Shown: positions 541 to 59,629, numbered from the stretch's first letter. The stretch is 64,000 nucleotides of DNA from Rhodoferax sp. (GCA_040400795.1 JBBAPO010000001.1:30523-94522), one strand, 5' to 3'. The notes: generated by a model not told the origin, from the sequence alone. Numbers and translations: made by a program.

Positions 541-972
541 TCAGAGCAGGACTAGATTTTGCTGCCGGAAACCCACGACGGCGGTCGTGAGGATCCCGCC
601 ATTGGTTGTCACCAACCTAGACCCGTTGCTCACCGCAAGGGCTAGAAGGTAGACGTCAGTAATATGGTCTGATGTAAGCATCACCGCTTGGTTGAAGACC
701 GAGGGGTTGATCAAGCTCACGCTGTCTGGCCAGAACTGATGCTCGGGTTGGGCAGACATCGCGGCGAGCAATGCCAGCGTTGCCTGAGGCGGTTGCTTGT
801 TTGGGTAGCCTTTGTTGCCGATGATGCGAGCCGTGCCGTTTTGAGTTAGGGGGCACGAGGCCCATCCGTGGACGGGCGCGTTCTGCGTGAACCACGCCCC
901 CACTTTGACGTGGTTCACGTGGTTCTTATCGATCAGGGCAATCAGTGCGCAAACGTCCAACAAAGCTCGCAT
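541..972 (-). CDS. vapC: PIN-domain ribonuclease toxin, VapC family
   Basis: 143 aa. The N-terminal LLDVCALIAL carries the first PIN acidic residue. Further on are ITDVYLLALA and a C-terminal LVTTNG. It lies 3 nt downstream of a small antitoxin ORF. Confidence 0.85.
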   Translation of the reverse strand: MRALLDVCALIALIDKNHVNHVKVGAWFTQNAPVHGWASCPLTQNGTARIIGNKGYPNKQPPQATLALLAAMSAQPEHQFWPDSVSLINPSVFNQAVMLTSDHITDVYLLALAVSNGSRLVTTNGGILTTAVVGFRQQNLVLL

Positions 973-975
973 GGG

Positions 976-1248
976 TCAAAGACCCTCGTTGTTCTGCAGC
1001 TCGCGTACGAGCTCGTCGGTGACGAGAGGCGTCTCCGGATTCCGAGCGAACGGAATCACGCCGAGCGCGAGCAGCTTTCGGTCGAGTTCGGACTGATCAG
1101 CCACGCCCACCGCCTTGTGGACTGCGCCTTGCTGAATTCCTTGCCGCGCGAACTCGCTCACCACAGAGCCCAGGCTTGAGCTGTTGGTTTTGCTGATGCT
1201 TCGCGCCAATGCCAAGATGTCATCGTCGATGTCGATAGTGGTTCTCAT
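976..1248 (-). CDS. vapB: Type II antitoxin, VapB-like (MRTTIDIDDDL-type)
   Basis: 90 aa starting MRTTIDIDDDILALAR, the typical VapB/DUF2191-type N-terminus. It sits immediately upstream of vapC on the same strand. Confidence 0.75.
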   Translation of the reverse strand: MRTTIDIDDDILALARSISKTNSSSLGSVVSEFARQGIQQGAVHKAVGVADQSELDRKLLALGVIPFARNPETPLVTDELVRELQNNEGL

Positions 1249-7701: not shown

Positions 7702-8557
7702 GTGGGTTAAAGCCGGTCACCATCATGGTGGCCAGTAACACCAGCGCGCCGCCGGCGTAAGAGGCGAGGGTGAACACCTCGCCCAAAAACAGATGCCCCC
7801 AGACCACGCCAAAAATGGTCACCATGAAGGTGGAGCTGTGGGCCGCCACTGCGCTGACATGTTGCACGATGCGCATGTATTGCCAATAGGCCAAGCCAGA
7901 GGTAATGATGCCCATCAGCGCCACTGCTGAAAGGGCAGACCATGAAAATTGGGCCTGGGGTAGTTTCCAAAGGGCACCGGGCAGCAGCAGCAAAAAACCG
8001 AAGGCGTGGATGCCGGCCGTGATGCTCAAGGGCGGCATGCGTTGGATAGCCCTTTTGAGCAGGGGCATACTGAATCCGGTGAAAAAGCAGGCGCCCACCG
8101 CCAGGGCCGTACCGGCCAAGACCTCGGGCGAGGGGTCAATGGGCCCCAGTCTGACCACCAGTGCCACACCGGTAAAGGCGAGCAGGCAGCCCACCAGCTT
8201 GGTCCAGGTCAGCGTGTCTTCTTTCATCCAGGCAGAGGCAAAGGCCCCAAACAGCACAGACGTGACGGCCACCACAGCGCTGTACCCCGATGGCAAATAA
8301 AGCGATGACCAGGCACTCAGAAAATGCGGCAATGCAATGGCTGCGGCGCCAAGCAGCAACAGTTCTCGCCAGTGTTGCCACGGCCAGTCCAGCTTCTGGT
8401 GCCGCATGATCATGGCCAGCGTGATGGCGCCCAGCCCGATACGCGCGGCTGCGGCAACGCTGGGCCCCAGCACTGGGGTGGCTATCCGGGTCAGTAAAAA
8501 GCCGGTGCCCCACAGCGCCGACAAGGCGACCAGCTGGAAGAAGTACCGACTCTTCAC
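7658..8557 (-). CDS. DMT/EamA-family transporter
   Basis: 299 aa with 10 hydrophobic segments and two EamA-like halves. Its 3' end overlaps the convergent gene by 44 bp. Confidence 0.8.
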   Translation of the reverse strand: MKSRYFFQLVALSALWGTGFLLTRIATPVLGPSVAAAARIGLGAITLAMIMRHQKLDWPWQHWRELLLLGAAAIALPHFLSAWSSLYLPSGYSAVVAVTSVLFGAFASAWMKEDTLTWTKLVGCLLAFTGVALVVRLGPIDPSPEVLAGTALAVGACFFTGFSMPLLKRAIQRMPPLSITAGIHAFGFLLLLPGALWKLPQAQFSWSALSAVALMGIITSGLAYWQYMRIVQHVSAVAAHSSTFMVTIFGVVWGHLFLGEVFTLASYAGGALVLLATMMVTGFNPLSQRDRKTPSAPPG

Positions 8558-46250: not shown

Positions 46251-47357
46251 CTAGAGTTGCAAGCGGCCGGTGTAGCCTGTCATTTCGAGGTAGCCCCGGC
46301 CTACTGTGCGGCCGTTGCTGTCAATCAGCTCGCTCAGGCCTTCCCAGTAGACCGTGCCGGTGGAGGCTCGGCTGTCCAGCTCCTGATTGTCAACGATCGC
46401 CCGAACGGTGTAGATGTCGGCTGGCGTGCGCACCAGCCATTCGACAGGGTAGCGGGCCCCGGTCAGGGGGCTGACCCAGTACCGCACCGGCCGGAAAACC
46501 ACCTCGCCCGGGCTGAACACATGGGGCAGTTTGTCCAACCCCATGGCGGGGTGGCGAAAGGATCCGCCGTCCCACAGCGCAGCGCCCGCCTTGGTGCGCA
46601 GCTGAAAGGCGGTTAGCGCGCTGCCGTCTGCCAGGTTCATGCCGATCCAGTCCCAGCCGACCGCCTGCGGGTGCAGCAGCTCGTCGCTCCACTCATGGTC
46701 CAGCCAGGCCTTGCCTTGCACGGCCAGCGCCTTGCCACTGACTGCCTTGCCGCCCAGGCGCAGCGTGCCGCTGGTGCGCAGCTGCGGCAGGCTGTAGTAG
46801 TAGCTGGCCTGCTTGGGCTCGGGCCCCTTGCGCGACAGGCCGCGGTCGCCTTGCAACAGCAGCGGCTGGGTCTCGGTCAGCGTCAGCGTGAAATCAAAAC
46901 CAGCCCCGGCCGCCTGCGCCAGGTAAGTGTTGCCATCGCGCCGCAGCGACCAGTCGCGCAGGCGCACATCGGTGTCGGTCTCGCTGGCCTTGGCCACGCC
47001 AAAGCCGGCGCGCGCCAGGCGCTGGTCGTGCCACAGCTTCTTGCCCGCCACATCGGTGACGGCAGCGTGGGCAAACAGCAGTTGTTTGGCGGCAAAGGCG
47101 GAGGTCATGCCCTGGGTGGCCGCCACCCGACTGCGAAAAAATGTGAGCTGAAAACCAAAACTCTGCGCCGGCGTCTCGCCTGTCAGGCTGCCAGTGATGT
47201 ACCACCACTCGGTGCGCATGTCCGGGTGGCTGCCCAGGTCACGCGGAAACTGCAGCCGCTGCGGCGTCAGTGCGCCGGCACCTGTGGGCAAGAGCGGCAG
47301 TGCCAGGGCGGCCGCAAGCAAGCGGCGGCGTGGCAGGCCGGGCATGGGGAGTACCAT
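46251..47357 (-). CDS. AttH/CrtC-like lipocalin-domain protein (secreted)
   Basis: RRRLL signal region, then FPRDLGSHPDMRTEWWYITG, which is typical of AttH-like proteins. The start is uncertain (47345, 47357 or 47381). Confidence 0.7.
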   Translation of the reverse strand: MVLPMPGLPRRRLLAAALALPLLPTGAGALTPQRLQFPRDLGSHPDMRTEWWYITGSLTGETPAQSFGFQLTFFRSRVAATQGMTSAFAAKQLLFAHAAVTDVAGKKLWHDQRLARAGFGVAKASETDTDVRLRDWSLRRDGNTYLAQAAGAGFDFTLTLTETQPLLLQGDRGLSRKGPEPKQASYYYSLPQLRTSGTLRLGGKAVSGKALAVQGKAWLDHEWSDELLHPQAVGWDWIGMNLADGSALTAFQLRTKAGAALWDGGSFRHPAMGLDKLPHVFSPGEVVFRPVRYWVSPLTGARYPVEWLVRTPADIYTVRAIVDNQELDSRASTGTVYWEGLSELIDSNGRTVGRGYLEMTGYTGRLQL

Positions 47358-47469
47358 GGCAGGACGGGTTGACAAAGGCATGCTGATGATTGTGGCCCCA
47401 TCCGGTGCCCGCATGCTAAATTCAGCGCAAAAGGAGGGCTGGCAACGGGCCCATAACAAGACAAACCGC

Positions 47470-49626
47470 ATGACCGCCAACGCATTTCACAACATCGCCC
47501 AAGTCGAAGCCAGCCTGTGGGAGGCTGCCGACCTGCTCCGCGCCAACTCCAACCTGCCCAGCAGCGAGTACTGCATGCCTGTGCTGGGCGTCATCTTTTT
47601 GCGCCATGCCACCAACCGCTACCAAACGGCACTGCAAACCATAGAAGCAGAACAAGCGGCAGGCACCATGCCAAAGCGCCCGCTGGGCAAAGCTGATTTC
47701 ATCAAGCGCCGCGCCCTCATGTTGCCCACAGCAGCGCGGTATGACACGCTGCTGAATCTGCCATCGGGTTCAAACTTGGGCAGCGCGCTGGTGGCCGCCA
47801 TGAACGCGATCGAGGCAGACTTTCCCCCGTTGCAAGGCAGCCTGCCCAAAGACTACGACCGCTTCGACAACAAGCTGCTTGAAGACCTGTTGCGCTGCTT
47901 TGACAGCCAAGCCCTGCGCACTGCCACCGGTGATGTGTTTGGCCGCATTTACGAATACTTCCTGATGAAGTTCGCCATGCAGGGTGCACAAGACAATGGC
48001 GAGTTCTTCACGCCGCCCTCACTGGTGCAAACCTTGGTCAATGTGATTGAACCGACCCATGGGGTGGTGACCGATCTGGCATGCGGGTCGGGCGGCATGT
48101 TTGTGCAAAGCAGCCACTTCATTGAGCAGTCCGGCCAGGACACCATGAAGCGTGTCACCTTCTACGGCCAAGAGAAGACCCGCGCCACCATCCCATTCGC
48201 CAAGATGAACCTGGCCGTGCATGGCTTGGAGGGCGACATTTTGGAGGCCAATACCTTCTACGACGATCCGCATCGCCTGCAAGATGGCCGTCCACTCTGG
48301 GGCAATGTCGACTTCATGATGGCTAACCCGCCGTTCAATGTGGACACCGTGGATGCCGACAAAGTAAAGGGTGACCGGCGCCTGCCCTTTGGTCTGCCCG
48401 GCGTCAACAAAGACAAACACGTCTCCAACGGCAACTACCTGTGGATCTCGTACTTTCACAGCTACCTGTCTCCCACCGGGCGCGCGGGCTTTGTCATGTC
48501 GTCCCAGGCCAGCAGCGCCGGCCATGGCGAGAAAGAAGTGCGGCGCAAACTGGTAGAGACGGGCGATGTAGACGTGATGGTCGCCATCCGCGCCAATTTT
48601 TTCTACACCCGCACCGTTCCCTGCGAGCTGTGGCACTTTGACAAGGCCAAGCCAGTAGCGCGCCAGGACCAGGTGCTGATGCTGGACGCCCGCAACGTGT
48701 ACCGCAAAGTCACCCGCAAGGTTTACGACTTTTCACCCGAGCAGCAAGCCAACCTGGCCGCTGTGGTGTGGCTGTACCGGGGCCAGCAAGAGCGCTTTTT
48801 GGGGCTGGTGCAAGGCTACATCACCCGCCTGGGCATCGCCGCGGCTGCCGTGGAGGGCACGCTGAGGGCATTTGAGTCAGTCCTGACGGCCTGCCGCGAA
48901 CCGGTGGCAGCCTTTTTGCAAAACCTGCGTAACATCGAAGCGCTGCCCCCAGCCCCGCGCCAACCCGCTGAGGATGCGCTTACCGAGTGGGTGGAGGCCA
49001 CCCGCAGCTACGCCAGCGACCGCGCCGCCTTGGTCACCGGCTTAGCCGTGTTTTGCAAGTCGGCGGCCAAGCCAGTGCACACCAACCAAGCCCAACACGC
49101 CGCCCGCCAAGCCTTTGACCCCCTGGCCGAATCGGCCCGGGGTCTGGTCAAACAGATTGACCTGCTCTACAAACTGGCCGCCCGCGCCGCCCAACTGGCG
49201 AATGAACTGGCGCAAGCATTGGGGCAGGATCTGGCAGCACGCGCCGAGGCCACTGAGTTTTATGACCGCCGGGCCGTGGGCAGGGCCATCAAGCAGCTAG
49301 ACGAAGACCGCCAAGCCGCCGTCGAACAGCTCAAAGGCTGCGCCTACCTGCACCGCCAGGTGGCCTGGCTGCAAGACCGCTTTCCCCAGGCTGCCATGGT
49401 GGACGTGCCCGGCCTGTGCAAGGTGGTCACCCGCGCCGACATTGAAGCCGCCGACTGGAGCCTGACCCCCGGCCGCTTTGTGGGCGTGGCCCCGGCCGAG
49501 GTGGACGCGGACTTCGACTTCGAACAAACCCTGCGCGACATCCACCTGGAGTTGGCGGACTTGAACCGCGAGGCTGTGGACTTGGCCGCCAGGATTCAGA
49601 CCAACTTTGAGGCGTTGGGGGTATGA
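47470..49626 (+). CDS. hsdM: Type I restriction-modification system, methyltransferase subunit M (long form, 718 aa)
   Basis: HsdM N-domain (LWEAADLLRANSNLPSSEY, VLGVIFLR), AdoMet site (DLACGSGGMF), catalytic NPPF (MMANPPFN), and C-terminal DWSLTPGRFVG. The track ORF from 47194 is an upstream extension overlapping the divergent gene. Confidence 0.92.
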   Translation: MTANAFHNIAQVEASLWEAADLLRANSNLPSSEYCMPVLGVIFLRHATNRYQTALQTIEAEQAAGTMPKRPLGKADFIKRRALMLPTAARYDTLLNLPSGSNLGSALVAAMNAIEADFPPLQGSLPKDYDRFDNKLLEDLLRCFDSQALRTATGDVFGRIYEYFLMKFAMQGAQDNGEFFTPPSLVQTLVNVIEPTHGVVTDLACGSGGMFVQSSHFIEQSGQDTMKRVTFYGQEKTRATIPFAKMNLAVHGLEGDILEANTFYDDPHRLQDGRPLWGNVDFMMANPPFNVDTVDADKVKGDRRLPFGLPGVNKDKHVSNGNYLWISYFHSYLSPTGRAGFVMSSQASSAGHGEKEVRRKLVETGDVDVMVAIRANFFYTRTVPCELWHFDKAKPVARQDQVLMLDARNVYRKVTRKVYDFSPEQQANLAAVVWLYRGQQERFLGLVQGYITRLGIAAAAVEGTLRAFESVLTACREPVAAFLQNLRNIEALPPAPRQPAEDALTEWVEATRSYASDRAALVTGLAVFCKSAAKPVHTNQAQHAARQAFDPLAESARGLVKQIDLLYKLAARAAQLANELAQALGQDLAARAEATEFYDRRAVGRAIKQLDEDRQAAVEQLKGCAYLHRQVAWLQDRFPQAAMVDVPGLCKVVTRADIEAADWSLTPGRFVGVAPAEVDADFDFEQTLRDIHLELADLNREAVDLAARIQTNFEALGV

Positions 49627-49693
49627 CGAGTGCTGATTGCTATGGTTTTAGTAGCTGCTTGGCTTTATTTCATGAGGGCTGCAGGCTGTTTTT

Positions 49694-50889
49694 ATGATAA
49701 TTGGTCTGCAAAGCATGAACTGGCCACAAGTTAGATTTGAGGACGTTGCATTGCCAGTAAAGGGTTCGATTGTCTCTGGCCCATTCGGATCAAACATCGG
49801 AAGTCGGTTTTTTGTTGATGATGGTGTCCCGGTAATTCGTGGAAACAATCTGACTTTTGGACATAGACGCTTTGTTGACGATGGCTTTGTGTTCCTGACT
49901 GATGAAAAGGCGGAGGAATTCAAGAATTGCCAAGCCATCGAGGGCGATTTGGTTTTTACGCGGCTGGAACCATCGGTCAGGTTGGGATTATTCCTGCTGG
50001 GACCCGCTTTGATCGGTACATCATTTCAAATAAGCAGCTTCGTGTCAGGAGCGACAAAAGCAAAGTCAATCCGCTATTCCTCTTCCTTTGGTTTACCACG
50101 CCAGGAATGAGACAGCACATCATCAACAAGAACAGCGGGAGCACGATCCCACTGATCAATTTGGGAATTTTGCGTGGCTTACCAGTGCCATTGCCGCCGC
50201 TTGAGATACAAAACAGGATCGTCGACTACCTCTCAACCTACGACGACCTCATCGAAAACAACCGCCGCCGCATGGCCCTGCTCGAAGAGTCCGCCCGGCT
50301 GCTCTACCGCGAATGGTTCGTCCGGCTGCGCTTCCCCGGCTATGAACACACCCCTGTTGTGGATGGCGTGCCAAAGGGGTGGACGCAGGCACCGCTGGAG
50401 TCTGCTTTGGTTTTACAACGTGGCTTCGATCTACCAACGCAAGACCGGCAAGAAGGCGGCGTCCCGATCTACGGCTCGACCGGCATCCTGGGTTACCACG
50501 ACAAAGCCAAAGCGGTAGCACCTGGGGTGGTGACTGGCCGAAGCGGCACTTTGGGCGAAGTGCAATACGTTGCAGAGGATTACTGGCCGCTCAATACCGC
50601 GCTTTGGGTCAAGGAGTTCAAGCGAGTGACACCATTATTTGCACTACACCTGCTGAGAGAGATGGACTTGAAGCAATTCAACGGCGGGTCATCCGTACCT
50701 ACGCTTGATCGCAAGTCCGTACACCGGGTTGAAATCCTGATTCCGCCCGCGCCAATACTTCGGTCATTTGATGAATTTGCGTCGACGGTCTTTCTGCAGA
50801 TGGAGAGCTTGCGCACGCAAAACCAAAAACTCCGTACCGCCCGCGACCTGTTGCTGCCGCGTTTAATGACTGGGAAAATCCAAGTATGA
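49694..50889 (+). pseudogene. hsdS: Type I R-M specificity subunit S, interrupted by a 1-nt frameshift near 49963
   Basis: ORF 49694-50110 reads ..EGDLVFTR and then runs into nonsense. ORF 49927-50889 reads AGTIGQVGIIP..YIISNKQL.. in the -1 frame. Joined at 49963 they give a normal two-TRD HsdS with the central conserved repeat IVDYLSTYDDLIENNRRRMALLEE and the distal repeat LRTQNQKLRTARDLLLPRLMTG. Confidence 0.85.
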
Positions 50890-52649
50890 AAATTAAGTCT
50901 TTTGAATTTACCTATATCAAGGCTTTCAAGTCCCTCAAATTCGACTTGGAAAGAACCTCGGTCCTTGTTGGTCAGAATGATCATGGAAAGTCGTCAATTC
51001 TCAAAGCCATTGACATTGTTCTGAATCAGCTAGATGAAGATGCGCTCAATCGTGGGGCCTTACACCCAGATTTAGCCGAGCGACTACTGCCACTTTTCCC
51101 GGTCAATTCCAAAGCCCGTCGGATCACAATCAAATATTCTTCAAAAGGAGTTGACAAGGTCTTGCACATCACGGTTCGTACAGACCTGACTTTTACGGTT
51201 CTCGAAACCATTGAACGAAGTGCAAAAACGACCCCAGCGGCAATTGCCGTTTTGAAACAACTTCGTGAGCACAACAGATTTGTCTTGATCCCTGCGATGC
51301 GTGACGCAACTTCGCCAGCCTTTCAGGATTTGTTTTCCCGGATGCTCCGAGTTCATGGTCTCGCAAAGATCATCCCGGAAAAAGCCGGCGGTACACCAAA
51401 GGAATACCGTAAGCTGAAGGAAATTAGGGACAGTATCTCAACCACAATCAAACCATTCATAAACGCCGCGCTGTTGCCGAAAATTGAGGAGCAGTTCGGA
51501 TACAAGACGCAACATAAACTGGCTCTGAAGTTTGATGTTGACGTGCAGGATATTGGTGAATGGATACTTGATAACCTGAGTTTGGGATTTGAAATGCCAG
51601 GCGATAGTGATGCGACATTGGCACTTTCTGAAGCGGGTTCCGGTGTTCAAAGTGGCGTGCTTTTGGCCCTTCATCGGGTTGAACAGCAAGCCGCAGAAAA
51701 CCCTGGTATTCAATTCATTCTGGCAGTTGAAGAGCCAGAAGCATTTCTACATCCACAAAAGCAAAAGGAACTTTATCAAGGCATACGTGCTGCTGCGTCA
51801 GCGAATTTACGGGTGATCGTCACCACCCACAGTCCCTACATCATTGCAGAGACTCCTTTTACCCGGCTGGGCCTTGTAAAAAAAGACGGGCAGCACTCAG
51901 CACTGCATGTGGCGGAGGTGAATAGCCAGGGTGAGCAGGAAACATTTGACGCTTACAGTGATGAGGTAAATTCATCCCTATTCTTCGCTGACAAAGTCAT
52001 ACTTGTAGAGGGTGAATCAGACTCAAGAGTGGTCAAACTACTGCTTGAAAAGAAGTTCGGTGCGCACGCTCACCGAATATCGGTGTTGTCTGCGTCTGGC
52101 AATAAAAATTCCTCACCTTTTTTGCGAATGATTCGAGCTTGGAGCTCTGCAAAAATTCCTCACTTGGTCGTGACTGATTTTGACTCGTTGACAAAGCCTT
52201 CAAATCGTGCTGTTTTGAAGGGTGCCAAAGACGCCGGTTACACACCAATTGGCGAGGCTGGTTTTCTGTCAAAAGTAGATGCGGCCCTTGATAAGGGTGA
52301 GCCAGAATATGCCGGGGCCGCAATCGATGCTACAGCCTTTTTCAGCACGGCCGGCCTAAACGTTTTTGTGTTCTCATCTGATTTGGAGTATTCCCTTCTA
52401 ACCACAGTAAACAAGGCAGCTGTTTCAACAGTCCTAACCAGCTTGTCTACCACGGGAAATGACTTTTCTAACGGATACAGCCTCGATGACTTGCGTCGTC
52501 AAATTGGCAGCAAAGGATTGCCGATAAGACCGAATGACGATGCCACCTTCAAGAAGCCGTTTGTTCATCGAAAAATTGCAGACACCATCGCACTGGGAGA
52601 CCCGCACCCAGACATTGCTCGATTGATTGCCGCGATTGATGCGCTGTAA
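50886..52649 (+). CDS. OLD-family nuclease: N-terminal ABC-type ATPase fused to a C-terminal Toprim domain (587 aa)
   Basis: Walker A GQNDHGKSS (aa 29-37), signature-like LSEAGSGVQS, Walker B FILAVEEPEAFLHP, and H-loop VTTHSP. Toprim motifs VILVEGESD and LVVTDFDS follow. The ATG overlaps the hsdS stop (ATGA). Confidence 0.85.
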   Translation: MKIKSFEFTYIKAFKSLKFDLERTSVLVGQNDHGKSSILKAIDIVLNQLDEDALNRGALHPDLAERLLPLFPVNSKARRITIKYSSKGVDKVLHITVRTDLTFTVLETIERSAKTTPAAIAVLKQLREHNRFVLIPAMRDATSPAFQDLFSRMLRVHGLAKIIPEKAGGTPKEYRKLKEIRDSISTTIKPFINAALLPKIEEQFGYKTQHKLALKFDVDVQDIGEWILDNLSLGFEMPGDSDATLALSEAGSGVQSGVLLALHRVEQQAAENPGIQFILAVEEPEAFLHPQKQKELYQGIRAAASANLRVIVTTHSPYIIAETPFTRLGLVKKDGQHSALHVAEVNSQGEQETFDAYSDEVNSSLFFADKVILVEGESDSRVVKLLLEKKFGAHAHRISVLSASGNKNSSPFLRMIRAWSSAKIPHLVVTDFDSLTKPSNRAVLKGAKDAGYTPIGEAGFLSKVDAALDKGEPEYAGAAIDATAFFSTAGLNVFVFSSDLEYSLLTTVNKAAVSTVLTSLSTTGNDFSNGYSLDDLRRQIGSKGLPIRPNDDATFKKPFVHRKIADTIALGDPHPDIARLIAAIDAL

Positions 52650-54302
52650 TTGTCAATAGGCCTCTTTATGTCCCTCGAAGGCCACCACACCGACCTCAAG
52701 TCTCTGCGCACCGTCACCGGCAAGTCGGCGGACTGGGAGGCGTTGGCCAAAGATTGCGTGTGCTTTGCCAATGGCGGGGGTGGCCGCTTGTTGATTGGCA
52801 TCGAAGATGGACAAACCTTGCCGCCTGCCGGCCAAGTGGTGCCGTCAGAGCTGCTTGACCGGTTGCGCAAGCGCATGGGCGAGTTGACGGTGAATGTGCA
52901 GGCATTGCCCAGCGTGCAGCTGGCGGCCAATGGCGGTGAGTTCATCGAGCTTGTGATTGACCGAGCCCCCAGCGTGGCATCTACCAAAGATGGCCGCTAT
53001 TTCCTGCGCGTGGGTGACACCTGCCAGCCGGTGCTGGGCGACGACGTACTGCGCCTCGCCAATGAGCGGCCGGGCAGGCCGTGGGAGGCGATGGACAGCG
53101 GCGTGTCGCGTGGCGCTGCTGCCGCCGACAAGCTGGCCGCTTTTGTTAAAGGTATTGCGGCATCGGGCCGGGTCAAAGAGTCTGTCAAGGAAAAAGGTGC
53201 GGATGCGCTGCTGACCCATTACGGGTTGGCCCAAGGCGCAACGCTGACCCGCCTGGGTGCGCTGCTGCTGGGCACTGCCGCCGACCGCCGCGCCTTGGGC
53301 ACTGCGCCGCTGGTGCAGGCCATCAAGTACGACGAGCAGGGTCAGAAAATCAACAAATGGGTGTGGGACGACTGCGAGCTATCCCCCGTGGAGCTGGTAG
53401 ATGCCGTGTGGCGCGAGGTACCCGATTTTCGCGAGAGCTACGAGGTGGCCGAAGGCCTCTACCGCCGTAGCGTGCCCGCCTACGACGAAAAGGTGGTGCG
53501 CGAGTTGCTGGTCAACGCGCTGGTGCACCGGCCTTACACGCAACAGGGCGACATTTACCTCAATCTGCACCCCGAGCGGCTGGAGGTGGTCAACCCCGGC
53601 CGCTTGCCGCTGGGGGTAACCCCGCGCAACATGCTGCATGCCAGCCGCCGGCGCAACGAAGGGCTAGCGCGGGTGTTTCACGACCTGGGCCTGATGGAGC
53701 GTGAGGGCAGCGGTTTTGACTTGATCTATGACCGGCTGCTGTCCCAAGGCCGCCCGGCACCCGTGCCCGAAGAGGGCGTGGATTGGGTCAAGGTGACGAT
53801 TCAACGGCGCATTGCCAAGCCTGACGTGATGCGGCTGCTTGCCGAGGCCGATGCCCGCTATCAGCTCACCCAGCGCGAGCGCATTACCTTGGGTGTGTTG
53901 GCACAGGCCGAGGGCATGACTGCCCGCGAACTGAGCGCCGTGCTGGAGGCGGAAGGCGGAGATGATTTGTCGGTATGGTTCGGGCGCTTGGTTTCTGCCG
54001 GCCTGGTCCATACCACGGGCAAGACTTCGGGCATGCGCTACTTTGTGGCACCGGATTGGTTACGTGGTGCGCAGCTCGACCGCAAAACCACGCTAACCCG
54101 CATCACACCGCACCGCCTGCATGCCTTGATTTTGGAAGACCTGGCGCGGTACCCCGAATCGTCCAGTGCTGACATTAACCGGCGCATTGGGGTGGAGATA
54201 TCGGCAAAAACGGTCAAGCGGGCTTTGGATCATTTGTTGGGCACCAATGAGGTGGTTTATTCAGGCGAGCGGCGCTGGCGGCGTTACCGATTGGGTGCGT
54301 AA
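52650..54302 (+). CDS. AlbA_2 (Schlafen-like) + HATPase_c_4 ('RecG-like C-terminal') + C-terminal wHTH protein
   Basis: N-terminal E..H.DLK...LAKDCVCFANGGGGRLLIGIED (AlbA_2 pattern). Central VRELLVNALVHRPY..NPG (HATPase_c_4 pattern). The C-terminus is helix-turn-helix-like. The TTG at 52650 abuts the upstream TAA; an alternative ATG lies at 52668. Confidence 0.8.
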   Translation: MSIGLFMSLEGHHTDLKSLRTVTGKSADWEALAKDCVCFANGGGGRLLIGIEDGQTLPPAGQVVPSELLDRLRKRMGELTVNVQALPSVQLAANGGEFIELVIDRAPSVASTKDGRYFLRVGDTCQPVLGDDVLRLANERPGRPWEAMDSGVSRGAAAADKLAAFVKGIAASGRVKESVKEKGADALLTHYGLAQGATLTRLGALLLGTAADRRALGTAPLVQAIKYDEQGQKINKWVWDDCELSPVELVDAVWREVPDFRESYEVAEGLYRRSVPAYDEKVVRELLVNALVHRPYTQQGDIYLNLHPERLEVVNPGRLPLGVTPRNMLHASRRRNEGLARVFHDLGLMEREGSGFDLIYDRLLSQGRPAPVPEEGVDWVKVTIQRRIAKPDVMRLLAEADARYQLTQRERITLGVLAQAEGMTARELSAVLEAEGGDDLSVWFGRLVSAGLVHTTGKTSGMRYFVAPDWLRGAQLDRKTTLTRITPHRLHALILEDLARYPESSSADINRRIGVEISAKTVKRALDHLLGTNEVVYSGERRWRRYRLGA

Positions 54303-54393
54303 TGTCTAAAGGACAAAAGGGAGGGGTGTTTCATGAAAAATAATGGCTTTAAGCCCCGCATGCGTTCCAAGTGGTTGATTTGTAATGGTTTTT

Positions 54394-54424
54394 ATAAAGG
54401 ACAGTCGTTGACGCTGTCCTTTAT
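54394..54424 (+). promoter_or_regulatory. Perfect 11-bp-stem hairpin (ATAAAGGACAG-N9-CTGTCCTTTAT) in the AT-rich spacer before hsdR
   Basis: Read directly from the sequence. It is followed by only a short T-tract, so its function (attenuator, operator or processing site) is unknown. Confidence 0.3.
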
Positions 54425-54451
54425 GACCGATGGCTCTGTCCGATAGAACCC

Positions 54452-57400
54452 ATGGCCTACACCGACATCAACAGCGAAGACCGATTGGTGCAGGCCACCT
54501 TTGCCGAGCATCTGGCGCATTCGCTGGGCTGGGACAGCGTGTATGCCTGGAACCAGGAAACCTTTGGCCCCAATGGCACGCTGGGCCGCGCCAGCGAGCG
54601 TGACGCGGTGCTGGTGCGCGACTTGCGCAGCGCATTGGTCCGGCTCAACCCGCAGCTGCCCGCCCCCGCCATTGAAGAGGCCATCACCAAGTTGACGCAC
54701 CACGAGTTTTCTCGTTCGCTGTTGCAGCACAACCAGGCGTTTCATGCGCTGATCCGCGACGGTGTGCCGGTGAGCTACCGCAACGCACAGGGGCAGCTCA
54801 GCCACGCACAGGCGGCGGTGATCGACTTTCGCAACCCGGTCAATAACCGGTTTCTGGTGGTGCGCGAGCTCAAGCTCACCGGCCTGCGCACGCCCAACTA
54901 CAACCGCCGGGCCGATCTGGTGTGTTTTGTGAACGGCTTGCCGCTGGTCTTTGTTGAGCTCAAAGCGGTTTACAAAAACATCCGTGCTGGCTTTGACGGC
55001 AACCTGCGCGACTACATGGACGAGAACGTGGTGGCCCATGCCTTTCACCACAACGCGTTTTTGGTTGTCAGCAACGGGCACAACGCCCGCTTTGGCTCCA
55101 TCACCAGCAGCTGGGCGCATTTTGGTGAGTGGAAGCGCCTGCACGAGCAGGATGTGGGCAACGTGGCCGCAGAGGTGTTGCTCAACGGCATGCTGGCCAA
55201 AGACCGCTTGCTTGACCTGGTAGAAAACTTCATTTTGTTTGACGCCAGCAAGGCCGGTGCCGTGCGCAAGGTGGTGGCCCGTAACCACCAGATGCTGGGT
55301 GTGAACCAGGCCGTGGCCGCCGTGGTGAGGCAGGAAGCACTGAAGCGTGAGTTCCCGACCGACAAACGCCTGACCCACCGCACCATTGCGCTGCCCTCTG
55401 CGGACAGAGATTACGCGGCCAATGATGCCTTGGTGGTTTACCCGATGGCTGCTCAGCCTGTGCCCGAGTACCTGCAAATCATCGAACGTGCGCACCCTGA
55501 TCTGGGCCGCTTGGGGGTGGTGTGGCACACGCAGGGCAGCGGCAAGTCGTATTCGATGGCCTTCTTTGCCGAGAAGGTGCGCCGCACGGTGCCGGGCAAT
55601 TTCACCTTTGTGCTGATGACGGACCGGGACGACCTGGACAGCCAGATTTACAAGACCTTTGTAGGCTGCGGGGTGGCCGATGGCACAACCCCGCGCGCAA
55701 GCTCAGGGCGCGAATTGCAGCGCCTGCTGTCTGAAAATCACCGTTTTGTGTTCAGCCTGATTCACAAGTTCAACCAGGAGGTATCGCCCGATGCGCCGTA
55801 CAGCAAGCGCGACGACATTATTGTGGTGTCTGATGAGGCTCACCGCACCCAATCGGGCAAGCTGGCGCGCAACATGCGCATGGCGCTGCCCAATGCGGCC
55901 TTTATTGGCTTTACCGGCACGCCGCTGTTCAAGCACGACCAGCTGACCAAGCGCATCTTTGGCGACTACGTGTCGCGCTACGACTTCAAGCGCAGCGAAG
56001 AAGATGGCGCCACCGTGAAGCTGGTGTACGAAAACCGGGGCGAGAAGTTGGGCCTGGCCAAGTTGGACCTGAACGATCGCATCGCGGCCGCTGTGGACGC
56101 TGCCGACCTGGACCCGGACCAAACGGCTTTGCTGGAAAAGCTGCTGGGCAAGGATTACGAGGTGATCACGGCTGACGAGCGCTTGGACCGCGTGGCCAGT
56201 GACTTTGTGGACCATTGCAGCACCCGCTGGGAAGCAGGCAAAGCCATGATGGTGTGCATCGACAAAATCACCTGTGCCCGCATGCTCAAGCTGATTGGCC
56301 CCAAGTGGAAGGCCAAGGCCGCCGCCGTGCGCACAGACGCTCAGGCCAAACTGGCTGCTATTGCCGCCGCCGATGATGACGAAACCCGTCAGATACTGCA
56401 TGCGCAGCGCGACCGGCTGGTGGCCAAAGCCGATTGGATGGATGACACCATCATTGAGCTGATCATCAGCGAAGCCCAAAACGAAGTGGCTGACTTCAAA
56501 AAGTGGCAGTTCGACATCATCTCCCACCGTTCGGTGATGAAGCTGGGATTTGAAACGAAAGACGGCCAGCGCGTCGATGTAGAAACCTCGTTCAAAAACC
56601 CCAAGCACCCGTTCCGCATCGCCATCGTGTGCGCCATGTGGCTCACCGGCTTTGATGTCGAATGCCTCGCCACGCTGTACATCGACAAGCCGATGCGGGC
56701 GCATACGCTGATGCAGGCCATTGCCCGTGCCAACCGGGTGTACCCGGGCAAGGATTTTGGGCTGATCGTGGACTACAACGGCATGCTCAAGAGCCTGCGC
56801 GAAGCCCTGGCCCAGTACGCGCTGGGTGACGATGGTGGTGACGCTGAGATCGTGGCTCCGATTGAAGAGCGGGTTGCTGCACTGGCCGATGCCATCACTG
56901 TGACGGAAGCACACCTGCGCGGCCTGGGCTTTGAGGCCAATGCACTGTCAGGTACCAAGGGGTTCACCCGCATTCAGTTGCTGGCCGACGCGGTAGAAGC
57001 GGTTTACACCAGTGAGGAAGCCAAGCGCCGCTATGAAATCTTGTGCCGTGTGGTGTTCGGCCGGTTCAAAGCATTGTTGGTAGAGCCCTCCGCATTGATC
57101 TATGCCGAGCGCCACGACAACCTGGAGGCCATCTACAAGAAGCTGGGCGAGCGACGCGACACGGCCGATGTGAGCGAGCTGCTCAAGCTGCTGCACCGCA
57201 TCGTCAACACGGCCATTGCCTCCCATGGCCCCGGTGGCGACCAGGCCAGCGGGCTGACGGTGGACCTGTCGCAGATCAACATGGAAAAGTTGCGCGATGA
57301 ATTTGCCAAAAAAATCAAACGCAAGGCGACGGTGATTGAGGACATCCGGCAAATTGTGGAAGACAAGCTGGCGCAGATGCTGGGGCGCAACCCACTGCGG

Positions 57401-57547
57401 ATGAACTACGAAAAGCGCTACCAGGAGATCATTGCCGCTTACAACCAGGACAAAGACCGAGCCACCGTGGAGGACACGTTTGCCAAACTCATCGAACTGG
57501 CGAATGCCTTGAGCGCAGAGGAGCGTCGGGCTTTGGATGAGGACTGA
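54452..57547 (+). CDS. hsdR: Type I restriction enzyme subunit R (main ORF; C-terminal domain lost to a frameshift)
   Basis: N-terminal nuclease region (ADLVCFVNGLPLVFVELK), helicase motif I (HTQGSGKS), DEAH box (VVSDEAHRTQ), and motif VI (QAIARANR). Confidence 0.92.
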   Translation: MAYTDINSEDRLVQATFAEHLAHSLGWDSVYAWNQETFGPNGTLGRASERDAVLVRDLRSALVRLNPQLPAPAIEEAITKLTHHEFSRSLLQHNQAFHALIRDGVPVSYRNAQGQLSHAQAAVIDFRNPVNNRFLVVRELKLTGLRTPNYNRRADLVCFVNGLPLVFVELKAVYKNIRAGFDGNLRDYMDENVVAHAFHHNAFLVVSNGHNARFGSITSSWAHFGEWKRLHEQDVGNVAAEVLLNGMLAKDRLLDLVENFILFDASKAGAVRKVVARNHQMLGVNQAVAAVVRQEALKREFPTDKRLTHRTIALPSADRDYAANDALVVYPMAAQPVPEYLQIIERAHPDLGRLGVVWHTQGSGKSYSMAFFAEKVRRTVPGNFTFVLMTDRDDLDSQIYKTFVGCGVADGTTPRASSGRELQRLLSENHRFVFSLIHKFNQEVSPDAPYSKRDDIIVVSDEAHRTQSGKLARNMRMALPNAAFIGFTGTPLFKHDQLTKRIFGDYVSRYDFKRSEEDGATVKLVYENRGEKLGLAKLDLNDRIAAAVDAADLDPDQTALLEKLLGKDYEVITADERLDRVASDFVDHCSTRWEAGKAMMVCIDKITCARMLKLIGPKWKAKAAAVRTDAQAKLAAIAAADDDETRQILHAQRDRLVAKADWMDDTIIELIISEAQNEVADFKKWQFDIISHRSVMKLGFETKDGQRVDVETSFKNPKHPFRIAIVCAMWLTGFDVECLATLYIDKPMRAHTLMQAIARANRVYPGKDFGLIVDYNGMLKSLREALAQYALGDDGGDAEIVAPIEERVAALADAITVTEAHLRGLGFEANALSGTKGFTRIQLLADAVEAVYTSEEAKRRYEILCRVVFGRFKALLVEPSALIYAERHDNLEAIYKKLGERRDTADVSELLKLLHRIVNTAIASHGPGGDQASGLTVDLSQINMEKLRDEFAKKIKRKATVIEDIRQIVEDKLAQMLGRNPLRMNYEKRYQEIIAAYNQDKDRATVEDTFAKLIELANALSAEERRALDED

Positions 57548-57846
57548 GCGAAGAGCAGCTGGCCTTGTTTGACCTGGTGCAGCGTGATGATTTGACCCGC
57601 GCTGACCGTGAACGCATCAAGCAGGCCAGCCGCGAGCTGTTGGCCGGTGTGCTGGCGCTGATCGCGCCGCTGGACCGCTGGACAGAAAAGGAACAGACCC
57701 AGGCCGAGGTGGAGACCTTCATCCTGGACCAGGTGTACCAAACCCTGCCGGAGCCGCCCTACACCCCGGACGACAAGGCTCGCGTGGCGCAGGAGGTGTA
57801 TCGGCATATCTGGCAGCAGAGCCTGCGGGCGCAGGGGGCAGGCTAG
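57541..57846 (+). pseudogene. hsdR: Displaced C-terminal (DUF3387-like) segment of hsdR in the -1 frame
   Basis: The frame opening at 57541 reads GLSEEQLALFDLVQRDDLTRADRERIKQASRELL..WTEKEQTQAEVETFI. This is the usual HsdR C-terminus and continues directly from ..EERRALDE of the main ORF. Confidence 0.75.
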
Positions 57847-57895
57847 ACCGTGTTGTGCGGGATACTCCAGCCTCTTAAAACTGCAAGCTCGCGCC

Positions 57896-58999
57896 ATGTC
57901 CCCCACCCAATCCCTTTTCTCCCCCTTCAGCTGCAAAACCCTGCAGCTCCCCAACCGCATCGTGATGGCGCCGATGACGCGCTCGTTCTCGCCCGGTGGT
58001 GTGCCGACCGACGATGTGACCGCGTATTACCGCCGCCGTGCCGTGAGTGCGGTGGGCCTGATCGTGTCCGAGGGGACGGTGGTGGAGCGCCCGGCGGCGT
58101 CCAATGACCCCGATGTACCGCGCTTCTGGGGCGACGATGCATTGGCCGCTTGGCAAAAGGTTATTGAAGGCGTGCACGCCGTGGGCGGCCTGATGGCGCC
58201 GCAGCTATGGCATGTGGGCGCGGTGCGCAACCGGCGCACCAGTTGGCAGCCGCCCGGCCCATGGGATTCCCCGTCGGGCCTGTCGTCGCCTGGCAAAAAG
58301 ATTGCCGAGCCCATAAGCGATGCCGACATTGCCGACACCATTGCCGCCTTCGCGCGCGCGGCTGGTGCTGCCAAACGGCTGGGCTTTGACGCTATCGAGC
58401 TGCATGGCGCCCATGGCTACCTGATCGACCAGTTTTTCTGGGAAGGCACCAACCTGCGCCAGGACGGCTACGGCGGCGCCAGCCTGGTGCAGCGTGGCCG
58501 GTTTGCGGCCGACATCCTGACGGCGGTGCGCGCCGAGGTGGGGCCGGACTACCCGGTGATCATCCGGCTGTCGCAGTGGAAGCAGCAGGACTACGCGGTG
58601 CAGATGGCCCGCACGCCGCAGGAGATGGAGGACTGGCTGCGGCCACTGGCCGACGCTGGCGCCGACATCTTCCATTGTTCGCAGCGCCGCTTTTGGGAAC
58701 CCGAGTACGCGGGCTCGGACCTTAACTTTGCCGGCTGGGCCAAAAAGCTCACCGGCAAACCCACCATCACGGTCGGCTCAGTGGGCCTGTCGGGCGAGTT
58801 CATTGCCTCCTTTGGCGGCGAGGGCTCGCAACCGGCCGCGCTGGATGAATTGCTGCGTCGGCTGGACCGTGGCGACTTTGATCTGGTGGCGGTGGGTCGG
58901 GCCTTGATCAGCGACCCAGACTGGGTGCTGAAGGTGCGCGACGGCCGCGCCAGTGAGCTGTCGGATTATTCGCCCGCTGCCTTGGCCAAGCTGGTCTGA
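57896..58999 (+). CDS. NADH:flavin oxidoreductase, Old Yellow Enzyme family
   Basis: Contains NRIVMAPMTR, QLWHVG and IELHGAHGYLIDQF. Confidence 0.9.
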   Translation: MSPTQSLFSPFSCKTLQLPNRIVMAPMTRSFSPGGVPTDDVTAYYRRRAVSAVGLIVSEGTVVERPAASNDPDVPRFWGDDALAAWQKVIEGVHAVGGLMAPQLWHVGAVRNRRTSWQPPGPWDSPSGLSSPGKKIAEPISDADIADTIAAFARAAGAAKRLGFDAIELHGAHGYLIDQFFWEGTNLRQDGYGGASLVQRGRFAADILTAVRAEVGPDYPVIIRLSQWKQQDYAVQMARTPQEMEDWLRPLADAGADIFHCSQRRFWEPEYAGSDLNFAGWAKKLTGKPTITVGSVGLSGEFIASFGGEGSQPAALDELLRRLDRGDFDLVAVGRALISDPDWVLKVRDGRASELSDYSPAALAKLV

Positions 59000-59084
59000 T
59001 CGATCGATACGATCCGGCGGTGGATTAATCGTATGATTCAGCGTACTATCAAGCGCATTATTGACCCATCGCCAGGAGTTTGCA

Positions 59085-59339
59085 ATGTCACACATCAGCG
59101 CCAATGACCTAAAGACCAAGGGTATCGCTGCCATTGAGTTGGCCCTGAGCACCGCGCCCGAGGCGATTGTGTCGGTGCGCGGCAAAGACAGGTATGTGGT
59201 GATGGATATGGCGCAGTACCACTACCTGCGCGAATGTGAGCTGGACGCCGCGCTGGCCCAGACTCGTGCCGACCTGGCCGCCGGACGCAGGGTGCAAGAG
59301 TCGCCCGAGGCCCACCTGGCGCGGCTGGACGCGATGTAA
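59085..59339 (+). CDS. Type II antitoxin (Phd/YefM-like)
   Basis: Small acidic protein with AGGAG 7 nt upstream of the ATG. It lies directly upstream of a RelE-like ORF. Confidence 0.7.
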   Translation: MSHISANDLKTKGIAAIELALSTAPEAIVSVRGKDRYVVMDMAQYHYLRECELDAALAQTRADLAAGRRVQESPEAHLARLDAM

Positions 59340-59356
59340 CGCCTCCACCAGTTGCC

Positions 59357-59629
59357 ATGTTTGCGCTGGTTTTCACCGAACAATACAACCGTCGGGCGGC
59401 CCGTTTTCTGAAACGTCACCCTGATCTTCGCCAGCAGTACCTCAAAACCTTGCAAGTCCTGGAAGCCAATCCGGCCCACCCGTCGCTGCGCCTGCACCCC
59501 TTGCGCGGCAAGTTGGACGGTCTGCATTCGGTGTCCATCAACCTGTCGTACCGCATCACGCTGGAGTTGTTGATTCAGGATGGGCAGATCATTCCGGTGA
59601 ATGTTGGCGATCATGACGCGGTGTACTGA
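59357..59629 (+). CDS. RelE/ParE-superfamily toxin
   Basis: 90 aa. HPSLRLHPLRGKLDGLHSVSINLSYRI..VGDHDAVY is typical of RelE/YafQ-like toxins. Confidence 0.8.
   Translation: MFALVFTEQYNRRAARFLKRHPDLRQQYLKTLQVLEANPAHPSLRLHPLRGKLDGLHSVSINLSYRITLELLIQDGQIIPVNVGDHDAVY

Follow-up and report, generated by a model that had tools for sequence, protein, structure and literature searches.

We analysed a 64,000-nucleotide (nt) stretch of Rhodoferax sp. DNA (GCA_040400795.1 JBBAPO010000001.1:30523-94522), called the window throughout, and in it a locus at 47470-57846 where two genes stand between hsdS and hsdR of a Type I restriction-modification (R-M) operon. The first codes for an OLD protein, the second for a protein with AlbA_2 and HATPase_c_4 domains (AlbA_2 gene and AlbA_2 protein below). 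With good probability, the locus is a chromosomal operon of Burkholderiales whose hsdS-hsdR slot is occupied by two unrelated single-gene elements, each distributed independently of the other. From the arrangement of homologous loci we take the OLD gene to be a swappable cassette and the AlbA_2 gene to be a resident of the operon. A sequence-only reading of the same DNA had joined the two genes into one module guarding the R-M complex. A survey of homologues showed that they do not travel together; the proposed two-gene guard is not upheld, and there is no case for following the locus up as a novel type of system. It belongs to known kinds, namely defence genes embedded in Type I R-M operons and single-gene OLD defence. 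The coupling of an OLD lineage to hsdS is a modest new observation, contrary to a review of the family (PMC10568477).

Distribution of the OLD and AlbA_2 genes

Both genes lie on the plus strand. The OLD gene (50886-52649) codes for 587 amino acids (aa) with Pfam matches to AAA_15, AAA_21 and OLD-like_TOPRIM and PADLOC matches to GajA and Old. It is followed after 18 nt by the AlbA_2 gene (52668-54302, counted from the ATG at 52668), whose 544-aa product matches Pfam SLFN_AlbA_2 (3.8e-10) and HATPase_c_4 (4.3e-17). Homologues of the OLD gene were collected by a genome scan, a metagenome scan and contig look-up, which gave 42 non-redundant loci of at least 58% identity, the window counted; these loci, designated here by L numbers, were queried with Hsd and AlbA_2 proteins of several families. 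R-M genes flank the OLD gene in 25 of the 42. The downstream neighbour was counted in 21 embedded loci with enough sequence. In 10 of them hsdR begins within 100 nt 3´ of the OLD gene (L012, L021, L022, L036, L037, L039, L041, L042, L049 and L054). Seven have unrelated or unresolved cargo at this place: PIN and RhuM/Fic (L001), TPR and DUF3800 (L005), RhuM (L007), Nmad3 and Nmad2 (L008), HTH and an AbiEii-like gene (L035), a 683-aa protein (L044) and one unclear case (L020).

An AlbA_2 gene follows in the remaining four, the window, L033, L004 and L034. All four represent one R-M lineage, their HsdR being 68-86% identical to that of the window, and in the OLD tree three of them share a branch, L004 standing on the neighbouring one. 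The AlbA_2 gene is frameshifted in L004 and has lost about 1.2 kb in L034; the OLD gene is intact in both.

The AlbA_2 gene, for its part, occurs without OLD. The order hsdM-hsdS-AlbA_2-hsdR was found in Acidovorax sp. JHL-3 and three metagenomic contigs (L025-28), and hsdM-hsdS-GmrSD_N-AlbA_2-hsdR in four contigs (L029-32), where the inserted gene matches HEC-05/BrxU-like models. Further AlbA_2 genes without OLD come from L057/58, L060-66 and L070-73, and no co-occurrence of the two genes beyond the shared host operon was seen. Seventeen of 21 OLD loci without AlbA_2, together with AlbA_2 loci without OLD, amount to a double dissociation, and the idea of a two-gene module fails on it.

The closest comparison is offered by L057, which is metagenomic, and L058. 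They are 96-97% identical to window positions 52668-58815 and represent the same chromosomal locus as that of the window; the homology extends into the downstream flavin oxidoreductase gene. Upstream of their AlbA_2 gene, in place of OLD, they contain the 3´ end of hsdS and an unrelated 91-aa open reading frame (ORF). The OLD swap is bounded on one side by a conserved stretch that closes hsdS (its last ~60 nt, 50818-50876) and on the other by the ATG of the AlbA_2 gene. Base composition differs as well: GC content is 47% in OLD (46% at third codon positions, GC3) and 63% in AlbA_2 (GC3 75%), with 60-62% in hsdM and hsdR, 53% in hsdS and about 60% in the genome; GC3 of hsdM, AlbA_2 and hsdR is 75-78%. 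The OLD gene would thus have arrived as a low-GC cassette, with the conserved hsdS 3´ end as its left and the AlbA_2 start codon as its right breakpoint, and the AlbA_2/HATPase_c_4 (COG2865-type) gene would be a long-term resident of this R-M lineage. This foreign composition of OLD, the ATG 52668 start and the frameshifts in hsdS and hsdR described below had all been overlooked in the sequence-only reading.

The OLD lineage behind hsdS

The assignment of the OLD protein rests on several matches. Pfam finds AAA_15 (5.5e-31), AAA_21 (8.4e-19) and OLD-like_TOPRIM PF20469 (2.7e-13, residues 366-433). The best PADLOC profiles are GajA (7e-37), Old (3.4e-34) and AriA, and in PDB the protein matches best to 6p74 (5e-15), a Class 1 OLD from Thermus scotoductus, to whose Toprim the window Toprim aligns; chains of GajA match at about 1e-5. 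The ATPase motifs are invariant in 20 homologues (Walker A GQNDHGK35S, signature SEAGSGVQS, Walker B VEEPE and H-loop THSP), and the Toprim motifs VEGES and TDFDS are equally so. The invariant residues include K35, rightly named before as the Walker A lysine, E282/E283, H315, E375/E377 and D431/D433. The protein consequently has an N-terminal ABC ATPase and a C-terminal OLD-type Toprim with Glu and DxD, in one polypeptide, and adjacent to its gene there is no UvrD/PcrA helicase, reverse transcriptase or non-coding RNA. By the context definition of PMC10568477, the sequence and its surroundings place the window protein in Class 1 OLD.

Gabija, retrons and PARIS were considered and rejected, in agreement with the earlier remark that the locus fits none of these contexts. 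Despite the GajA profile matches, no helicase gene besides hsdR is present in 47000-58000, which excludes Gabija. The AriA profile of PARIS covers residues 151-320 alone, and the Toprim is the OLD-like PF20469 with no match to DUF4435. There is no reverse transcriptase gene by Pfam and no RNA family of Rfam matches in 46500-58500, as would be needed for a retron. The HEC-04 model is not among the best 25 of the 150 PADLOC families matching OLD, in a library that includes HEC and PDC models. No NCBIfam family reaches its threshold for either the OLD or the AlbA_2 protein. A tblastn search with OLD against 72,556 plasmids returned matches of at most 25% identity, none from the OLD clade, and when the OLD gene was compared by blastn with every complete E. 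coli genome no match was obtained.

The family is very uniform. Nearly all of the best 120 matches are 586-591 aa long and 66-91% identical, and they come from Rhodocyclales, Gammaproteobacteria, Deltaproteobacteria, Verrucomicrobia, Acidobacteria, Kiritimatiellota and others. In the window, the OLD start codon overlaps the stop codon of hsdS (ATGA), and the tight coupling that had been proposed from this overlap is conserved across loci. A set of 21 loci was examined which have an hsdS gene or its remnant immediately upstream of OLD, or other cargo between the two (L008). A 4-nt (A/G)TGA overlap of hsdS stop and OLD start is present in 18 of these, in at least three Type I families. Across coupled loci, the identity of HsdM to that of the window ranges from 33% to 83%; OLD is better conserved than its R-M partners, for example in L007 with 68% against 33-34%.

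In 17 of the 42 OLD loci no R-M gene adjoins OLD as far as the flanking sequence extends; the majority of the OLD genes concerned are intact and of full length. Three such solitary copies (L002, L006 and L009) are preceded by a short 3´ remnant of hsdS of about 20 codons in the overlap frame, for example ...KLKTARDILLPLLMNGEIQV* in L002; the remnants lie at 9940-10003 in L002, 1560-1626 in L006 and 9940-10003 in L009. In the degraded R-M locus L035 the 5´ end of hsdM is fused to the 3´ end of hsdS (remnant 7830-8003) and the resulting frame overlaps the OLD start. These remnants are footprints of an R-M-embedded ancestor. A neighbour-joining tree intersperses solitary with embedded copies, the former nested within the latter, and sub-clades of OLD track the Type I family of the host operon. 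Remnants and nesting together indicate that the position in register behind hsdS is the ancestral state of the clade, from which OLD escaped repeatedly. Linkage to R-M is absent from the more remote relatives (58%, 47% and 40% identity).

The surroundings of some OLD copies contain genes of another kind. In L002 (6297-12427) the solitary OLD comes immediately after glmU-glmS, and the gene behind it codes for an IS200-like Y1 transposase; the site downstream of glmU-glmS is the position used by Tn7-like elements. In L009 and L011, IS200/RAYT-like N-termini adjoin the OLD gene, the ORF in L009 being without a Pfam match.

We propose that the OLD clade is a highly conserved, horizontally spread lineage whose ancestral site is directly behind hsdS. 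Because its start overlaps the hsdS stop, OLD would share a transcript with the methyltransferase genes and probably be coupled to them in translation. A scan of 47000-58200 with promoter and terminator consensus sequences found sites no more numerous than in shuffled sequence. By analogy with other Class 1 OLDs, the protein alone might act as an ATP-controlled DNA nicking enzyme or exonuclease, forming a second layer of defence to back up restriction. For the AlbA_2 protein we suppose a role of its own in connection with the R-M genes, in which it would bind nucleic acid and serve as sensor, regulator or effector.

Frameshifts and the AlbA_2-hsdR region

ORFs, Pfam and PADLOC agree with the gene order given by the sequence-only reading, hsdM, hsdS, OLD, AlbA_2/HATPase and hsdR on the plus strand, and the complete Type I set of hsdM, hsdS and hsdR is found in the locus. 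The hsdM gene (47470-49626) codes for 718 aa and is intact (Pfam HsdM_N and N6_Mtase; PADLOC MTase_I, 2.8e-237); its product is 83% identical to HsdM of Acidovorax sp. JHL-3 over residues 1-718. The two other genes are each disrupted by a 1-nt frameshift relative to intact homologues, so that the sequence as it stands encodes no Type I enzyme with all three frames intact.

In hsdS (49694-50889) the ORFs are 49694-50110 and 49927-50889, and Pfam finds Methylase_S in the second alone. In three-frame translation, ...EGDLVFT and AAGTIGQVGIIP... fall in different frames. The intact HsdS proteins of L004 and L007, which are related in their first target-recognition domain, have ...GD(V/L)(L/I)FTQRGTLGQV... 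in a single frame there; the window therefore lacks one base near 49957-49962, the simplest change being GGG to GG. The true start of hsdS is likely the ATG at 49715 (MNWPQV...). The hsdR gene (54452-57846; Pfam HSDR_N, SWI2_SNF2, T1R_D3-like and T1RH-like_C) is split at 57541 into ORFs 54452-57547 and 57565-57846. L057 has one extra G at this point and an intact HsdR of 1131 aa, within the 1131-1148 aa of intact relatives. Its alignment with window 52668-58815 is 96% identical and has a single gap, GATGAGGGGCTGAGC in L057 against GATGA-GGACTGAGC in the window.

What these lesions represent bears on how the whole locus is to be judged. One may suppose that they are real and that the operon is a decaying R-M island, which has lost restriction and probably methylation and whose cargo is merely still intact. 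The two deletions are independent, both fall within short G runs (in 49950-49970 and in 57535-57550), and they hit hsdS and hsdR, OLD, AlbA_2 and hsdM being intact. Over about 50 kb the surrounding genes, among them a complete nuo operon, pnp and tpiA, have ORFs of normal length, so that we judge general poor assembly quality unlikely, and the relative L057 shows the intact form of hsdR. Phase variation was rejected as a cause because the G3-G4 runs are too short. On the other side, 74 of the 101 differences between the hsdR genes of the window and L057 are at third codon positions, which means that any inactivation is recent, or else that the deletions are sequencing errors. We thus read the frameshifts either as recent inactivating mutations or as local assembly errors, and hold actual decay of the island to be possible, with somewhat less than an even chance. 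Should the frameshifts prove genuine, the operon has lost restriction but still has intact OLD, AlbA_2 and hsdM genes.

Turning to the AlbA_2 gene, its start had been placed at a TTG at 52650, which directly abuts the TAA of OLD (52647-52649). The abutment is present in the sequence; the start is not supported. Close homologues, among the matches listed, are 543-582 aa long (mostly 544-556) and 80-100% identical, none of them reaches upstream of the equivalent of ATG 52668, and the DNA homology of L057 starts exactly at this ATG. Homologue lengths and this edge make TTG 52650 unlikely, and the most likely start is ATG 52668, giving the 544-aa protein instead of 550 aa. Similarly, of the three domains ascribed to the protein, AlbA_2 and HATPase_c_4 are confirmed and the winged helix-turn-helix (wHTH) is not: Pfam calls no wHTH at threshold, and the sole match of the C-terminal region is a faint HTH_27 on relatives. 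An AlphaFold2 model from an 18-sequence alignment (pLDDT 54, pTM 0.27) was too poor and was not used for a fold search. Residues E4, D9, K11 and E46/D47 are invariant or nearly so in the alignment, a pattern which we presume to resemble the acidic triad of Schlafen RNases. The only structural relative is PDB 3lmm (1.9e-21), with homology over the full length, and no PADLOC candidate-system model matches the protein.

Most members of the family either stand alone or adjoin Type I R-M, BREX or another methyltransferase; in the contexts sampled, no OLD gene was seen beside them outside the R-M lineage of the window. Homologues of 57-60% identity lie upstream of hsdM on Aeromonas IncU plasmids and alone on rhizobial megaplasmids, and the subfamily more than 90% identical to the Aeromonas protein stands alone in Paracidovorax avenae and precedes hsdR in Acidithiobacillus. 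Plasmids also contain more remote members, which are located between hsdS and hsdR (Pseudoalteromonas) or between hsdM and hsdS (Aliarcobacter). Others adjoin different DNA methyltransferases (Pseudosulfitobacter, Hymenobacter), have no R-M nearby (Legionella, Providencia, Rhodothermus) or lie inside BREX directly after a 'TrlF family AAA-like ATPase' (V. parahaemolyticus). Judging from these neighbourhoods, AlbA_2-type proteins are generic neighbours of methyltransferase-based defences, and their genes are recurrent, as yet uncharacterised companions of such systems. The window module (52668-54299) and that of a Vibrio protein (L067, 4152-5381) also match the PADLOC pAgo and 'Aga_SIR2-PNTD1-PNTD2' models, down to 9e-22 for the Vibrio protein; the AlbA_2/HATPase_c_4 module thus appears fused to Argonaute-associated defence proteins. 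In Acidithiobacillus ferrivorans (L064/L065, 8001-17689) the order is AlbA_2, hsdR, ParDE, hsdS, PtuA and PtuB. Here Septu begins 2 nt after hsdS, another ABC-ATPase system right behind this gene in a different gene order.

The 149-nt spacer between AlbA_2 and hsdR (54303-54451) contains a conserved 37-codon ORF (54333-54446), which lies shortly before the hsdR ATG and has a strong Shine-Dalgarno sequence; the ORF is also called in relatives. Overlapping this ORF is the perfect inverted repeat ATAAAGGACAG-N9-CTGTCCTTTAT (54394-54424); two additional half-sites are located at 54308 and 54436. The repeat may be an hsdR operator, possibly bound by the AlbA_2 protein, or an RNA hairpin. The AlbA_2 protein could control transcription of the hsd gene next to it, which here is hsdR, acting through the palindrome and unrelated to OLD. 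Its gene stands directly upstream of hsdR or hsdM, with a spacer of 125-215 nt, in the window, L025-32, L060 and L064. The inverted repeat AAAGGACAG-N9-CTGTCCTTT and its half-sites are conserved in the arms and not in the spacer: at the nucleotide level the arms are invariant in L025, L026, L029 and L057 and have one mismatch in L034. Three of the four AAAGGACA sites of the 64-kb window fall here, and the faint HTH_27 match would suit a DNA-binding protein. This proposal is weakened by homologues without R-M nearby, namely L061, L062 and L063, the last more than 90% identical to the R-M-linked L060 subfamily. Moreover, the repeat arms also code for conserved residues of the 37-aa ORF, and the structure model cannot define a helix-turn-helix. 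On balance we find such control of hsdR unlikely.

Two pairs of small ORFs elsewhere in the window look like toxin-antitoxin modules, judged by their translations. One (59061-59629, plus strand; 92 aa and 90 aa) is just downstream of the R-M operon and its second product is RelE/ParE-like; the other (541-1248, minus strand; 90 aa and 143 aa) has a PIN-like second product.

Comparison with known systems

Defence genes inside Type I R-M operons are well documented. DarTG2 of enteropathogenic E. coli (EPEC) and TgvAB of V. cholerae VPI-2 are examples, and the hsdS-hsdR interval was proposed as a recombination hotspot (PMC12255303, PMC11411939). A 'guilt-by-embedding' survey collected embedded defence genes and found the PrrC family to be mostly embedded in Type I R-M (bioRxiv 10.1101/2024.01.29.577857). 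The window agrees with this picture, as it holds defence-type cargo in the slot of PrrC, a point on which the sequence-only reading was right. The survey shows in addition that known defence genes, here OLD and GmrSD/BrxU-like, are exchanged in the hsdS-hsdR interval. TgvAB and DarTG2 resemble the window cargo as independent defence systems within such an operon. They belong to other protein families, however, and are true two-gene systems, whereas the window pair dissociates.

The prrC gene of EcoprrI fills the interval between hsdS and hsdR, the same one in which OLD is found. PrrC and the window OLD also share an N-terminal ABC-type ATPase. The difference is in the effector, a Toprim instead of an anticodon nuclease (no PrrC-type C-terminal domain is present in OLD), and in the many intact OLD copies outside R-M. 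One might nevertheless imagine that OLD alone behaves like PrrC: made in a fixed ratio with HsdS and HsdM, it would stay latent on the methyltransferase complex until freed by DNA mimics or Stp-like peptides. The conserved overlap with hsdS in at least three Type I families, sub-clades that follow the R-M family, the conservation of OLD above that of its partners and the shared slot all suit such a guard, as does the sensing of Ocr by the OLD relatives PARIS and Gabija (cited in bioRxiv 10.1101/2024.01.29.577857). Against it, the solitary copies persist mostly intact, three of them behind a mere hsdS remnant. The window OLD is likewise intact beside a frameshifted hsdS, so that no HsdS would be left for it to dock on, and Class 1 OLDs studied so far function as single genes (PMC12392090). 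We consider this guard quite unlikely. Still more doubtful is the combined proposal in which the hsdS-coupled OLD is a dedicated, PrrC-like Type I companion, docked on the methyltransferase core and unleashed by anti-restriction proteins, and the AlbA_2 protein is a separate controller of hsdR acting through the palindrome.

The two-gene guard, with OLD as effector and the AlbA_2/HATPase/wHTH protein as sensor firing upon anti-restriction inhibition, is very improbable: adjacency on one strand, the junction shared with L033 and L034, Ocr triggering of the relatives and an analogous ATPase-AlbA_2 pair in BREX and Type I R-M speak for it, and it is contradicted by the double dissociation within the same R-M lineage and beyond, by damaged AlbA_2 genes beside intact OLD (L004, L034), by the differing GC contents and by the failure of AlbA_2 to match any PADLOC candidate-system model, its trigger being weakened by intact solitary OLD copies and the frameshifted hsdS.

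The analogous pair was seen in V. parahaemolyticus plasmid pLH80-1 (L067, 1471-5384), where a Ppl/TrlF-like ABC ATPase is followed after 14 nt by a 410-aa AlbA_2/HATPase_c_4 protein, between pglX and pglZ of BREX-1. A pair of 'RNA-binding protein + AAA-like ATPase' (WP_027672340/41 in Rheinheimera baltica) was described from loci without R-M and also from the hsdS-hsdR interval of four gammaproteobacteria (PMC12255303), and the L067 pair is most probably the same. It looks like a real uncharacterised two-gene cassette. The order, an ABC-ATPase nuclease and then AlbA_2/HATPase_c_4, in BREX or in the hsdS-hsdR interval, is that of the window. In contrast to OLD, the ATPase lacks a Toprim and is Ppl-like by PADLOC (3e-42), the AlbA_2 protein paired with it is shorter and about 30% identical over the HATPase_c_4 region, and the pair recurs outside R-M, which the OLD/AlbA_2 pair does not.

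Some points weigh against independent single-gene elements as the explanation of the window. By analogy with the Vibrio pair, AlbA_2-type proteins can partner ATPase nucleases, which leaves a small probability of cooperation at the window. The OLD-AlbA_2 junction is kept as a block in L033 (77% nucleotide identity through the junction) and in L034, so both genes have travelled together for some time. The contexts of the AlbA_2 family were sampled and not counted exhaustively, and the OLD survey comprises 42 loci, many of them on short metagenomic contigs. Finally, the frameshifts may be assembly errors.

The AlbA_2 protein itself is comparable to the COG2865-type proteins represented by PDB 3LMM: they have the same two Pfam domains, full-length homology and frequent Type I R-M or methyltransferase neighbours. 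The window subfamily bears an extra C-terminal region of about 160 aa, and 3LMM is uncharacterised. The legend of Fig. 8 in PMC7641849 labels COG2865 among genes in defence-associated neighbourhoods, and our observations suggest that the family is generally found near DNA-methyltransferase systems.

As for OLD, Gabija and PARIS share its ABC ATPase and Toprim chemistry. The window lacks GajB, ATPase and Toprim are fused, the Toprim is of OLD type and not DUF4435, and the sequence is nearer to Class 1 OLD than to GajA. HEC-04 is a fused ABC ATPase-TOPRIM protein embedded in Hma, which provides single-gene defence and needs its Walker A and Toprim metal site (bioRxiv 10.1101/2024.01.29.577857). 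It is thus similar to the window OLD in both fusion and embedding in a methylase-based defence; its host is Hma, not Type I R-M.

Class 1 itself includes P2 Old and E. coli YbjD. A literature search found no paper describing an hsdS-coupled OLD lineage. According to the review, Class 1 OLDs are lone genes away from other defence genes (PMC10568477), and one of them, Vc OLD of V. cholerae, acts as a single-gene anti-phage defence (PMC12392090). The window protein shares with the Class 1 OLD 6P74 a single polypeptide of N-terminal ABC ATPase and C-terminal Toprim and the absence of a partner gene. The identity is about 25% in a local match, and the window clade typically stands in register with hsdS, while the described ones are lone. 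We have here a very conserved Class 1 OLD lineage (about 60-91% identity), found in many phyla, which in several Type I families is habitually attached to hsdS at its 3´ end. It offers a test bed for the triggers of Class 1 OLDs, and for telling a functional link from mere co-inheritance of R-M-embedded genes.

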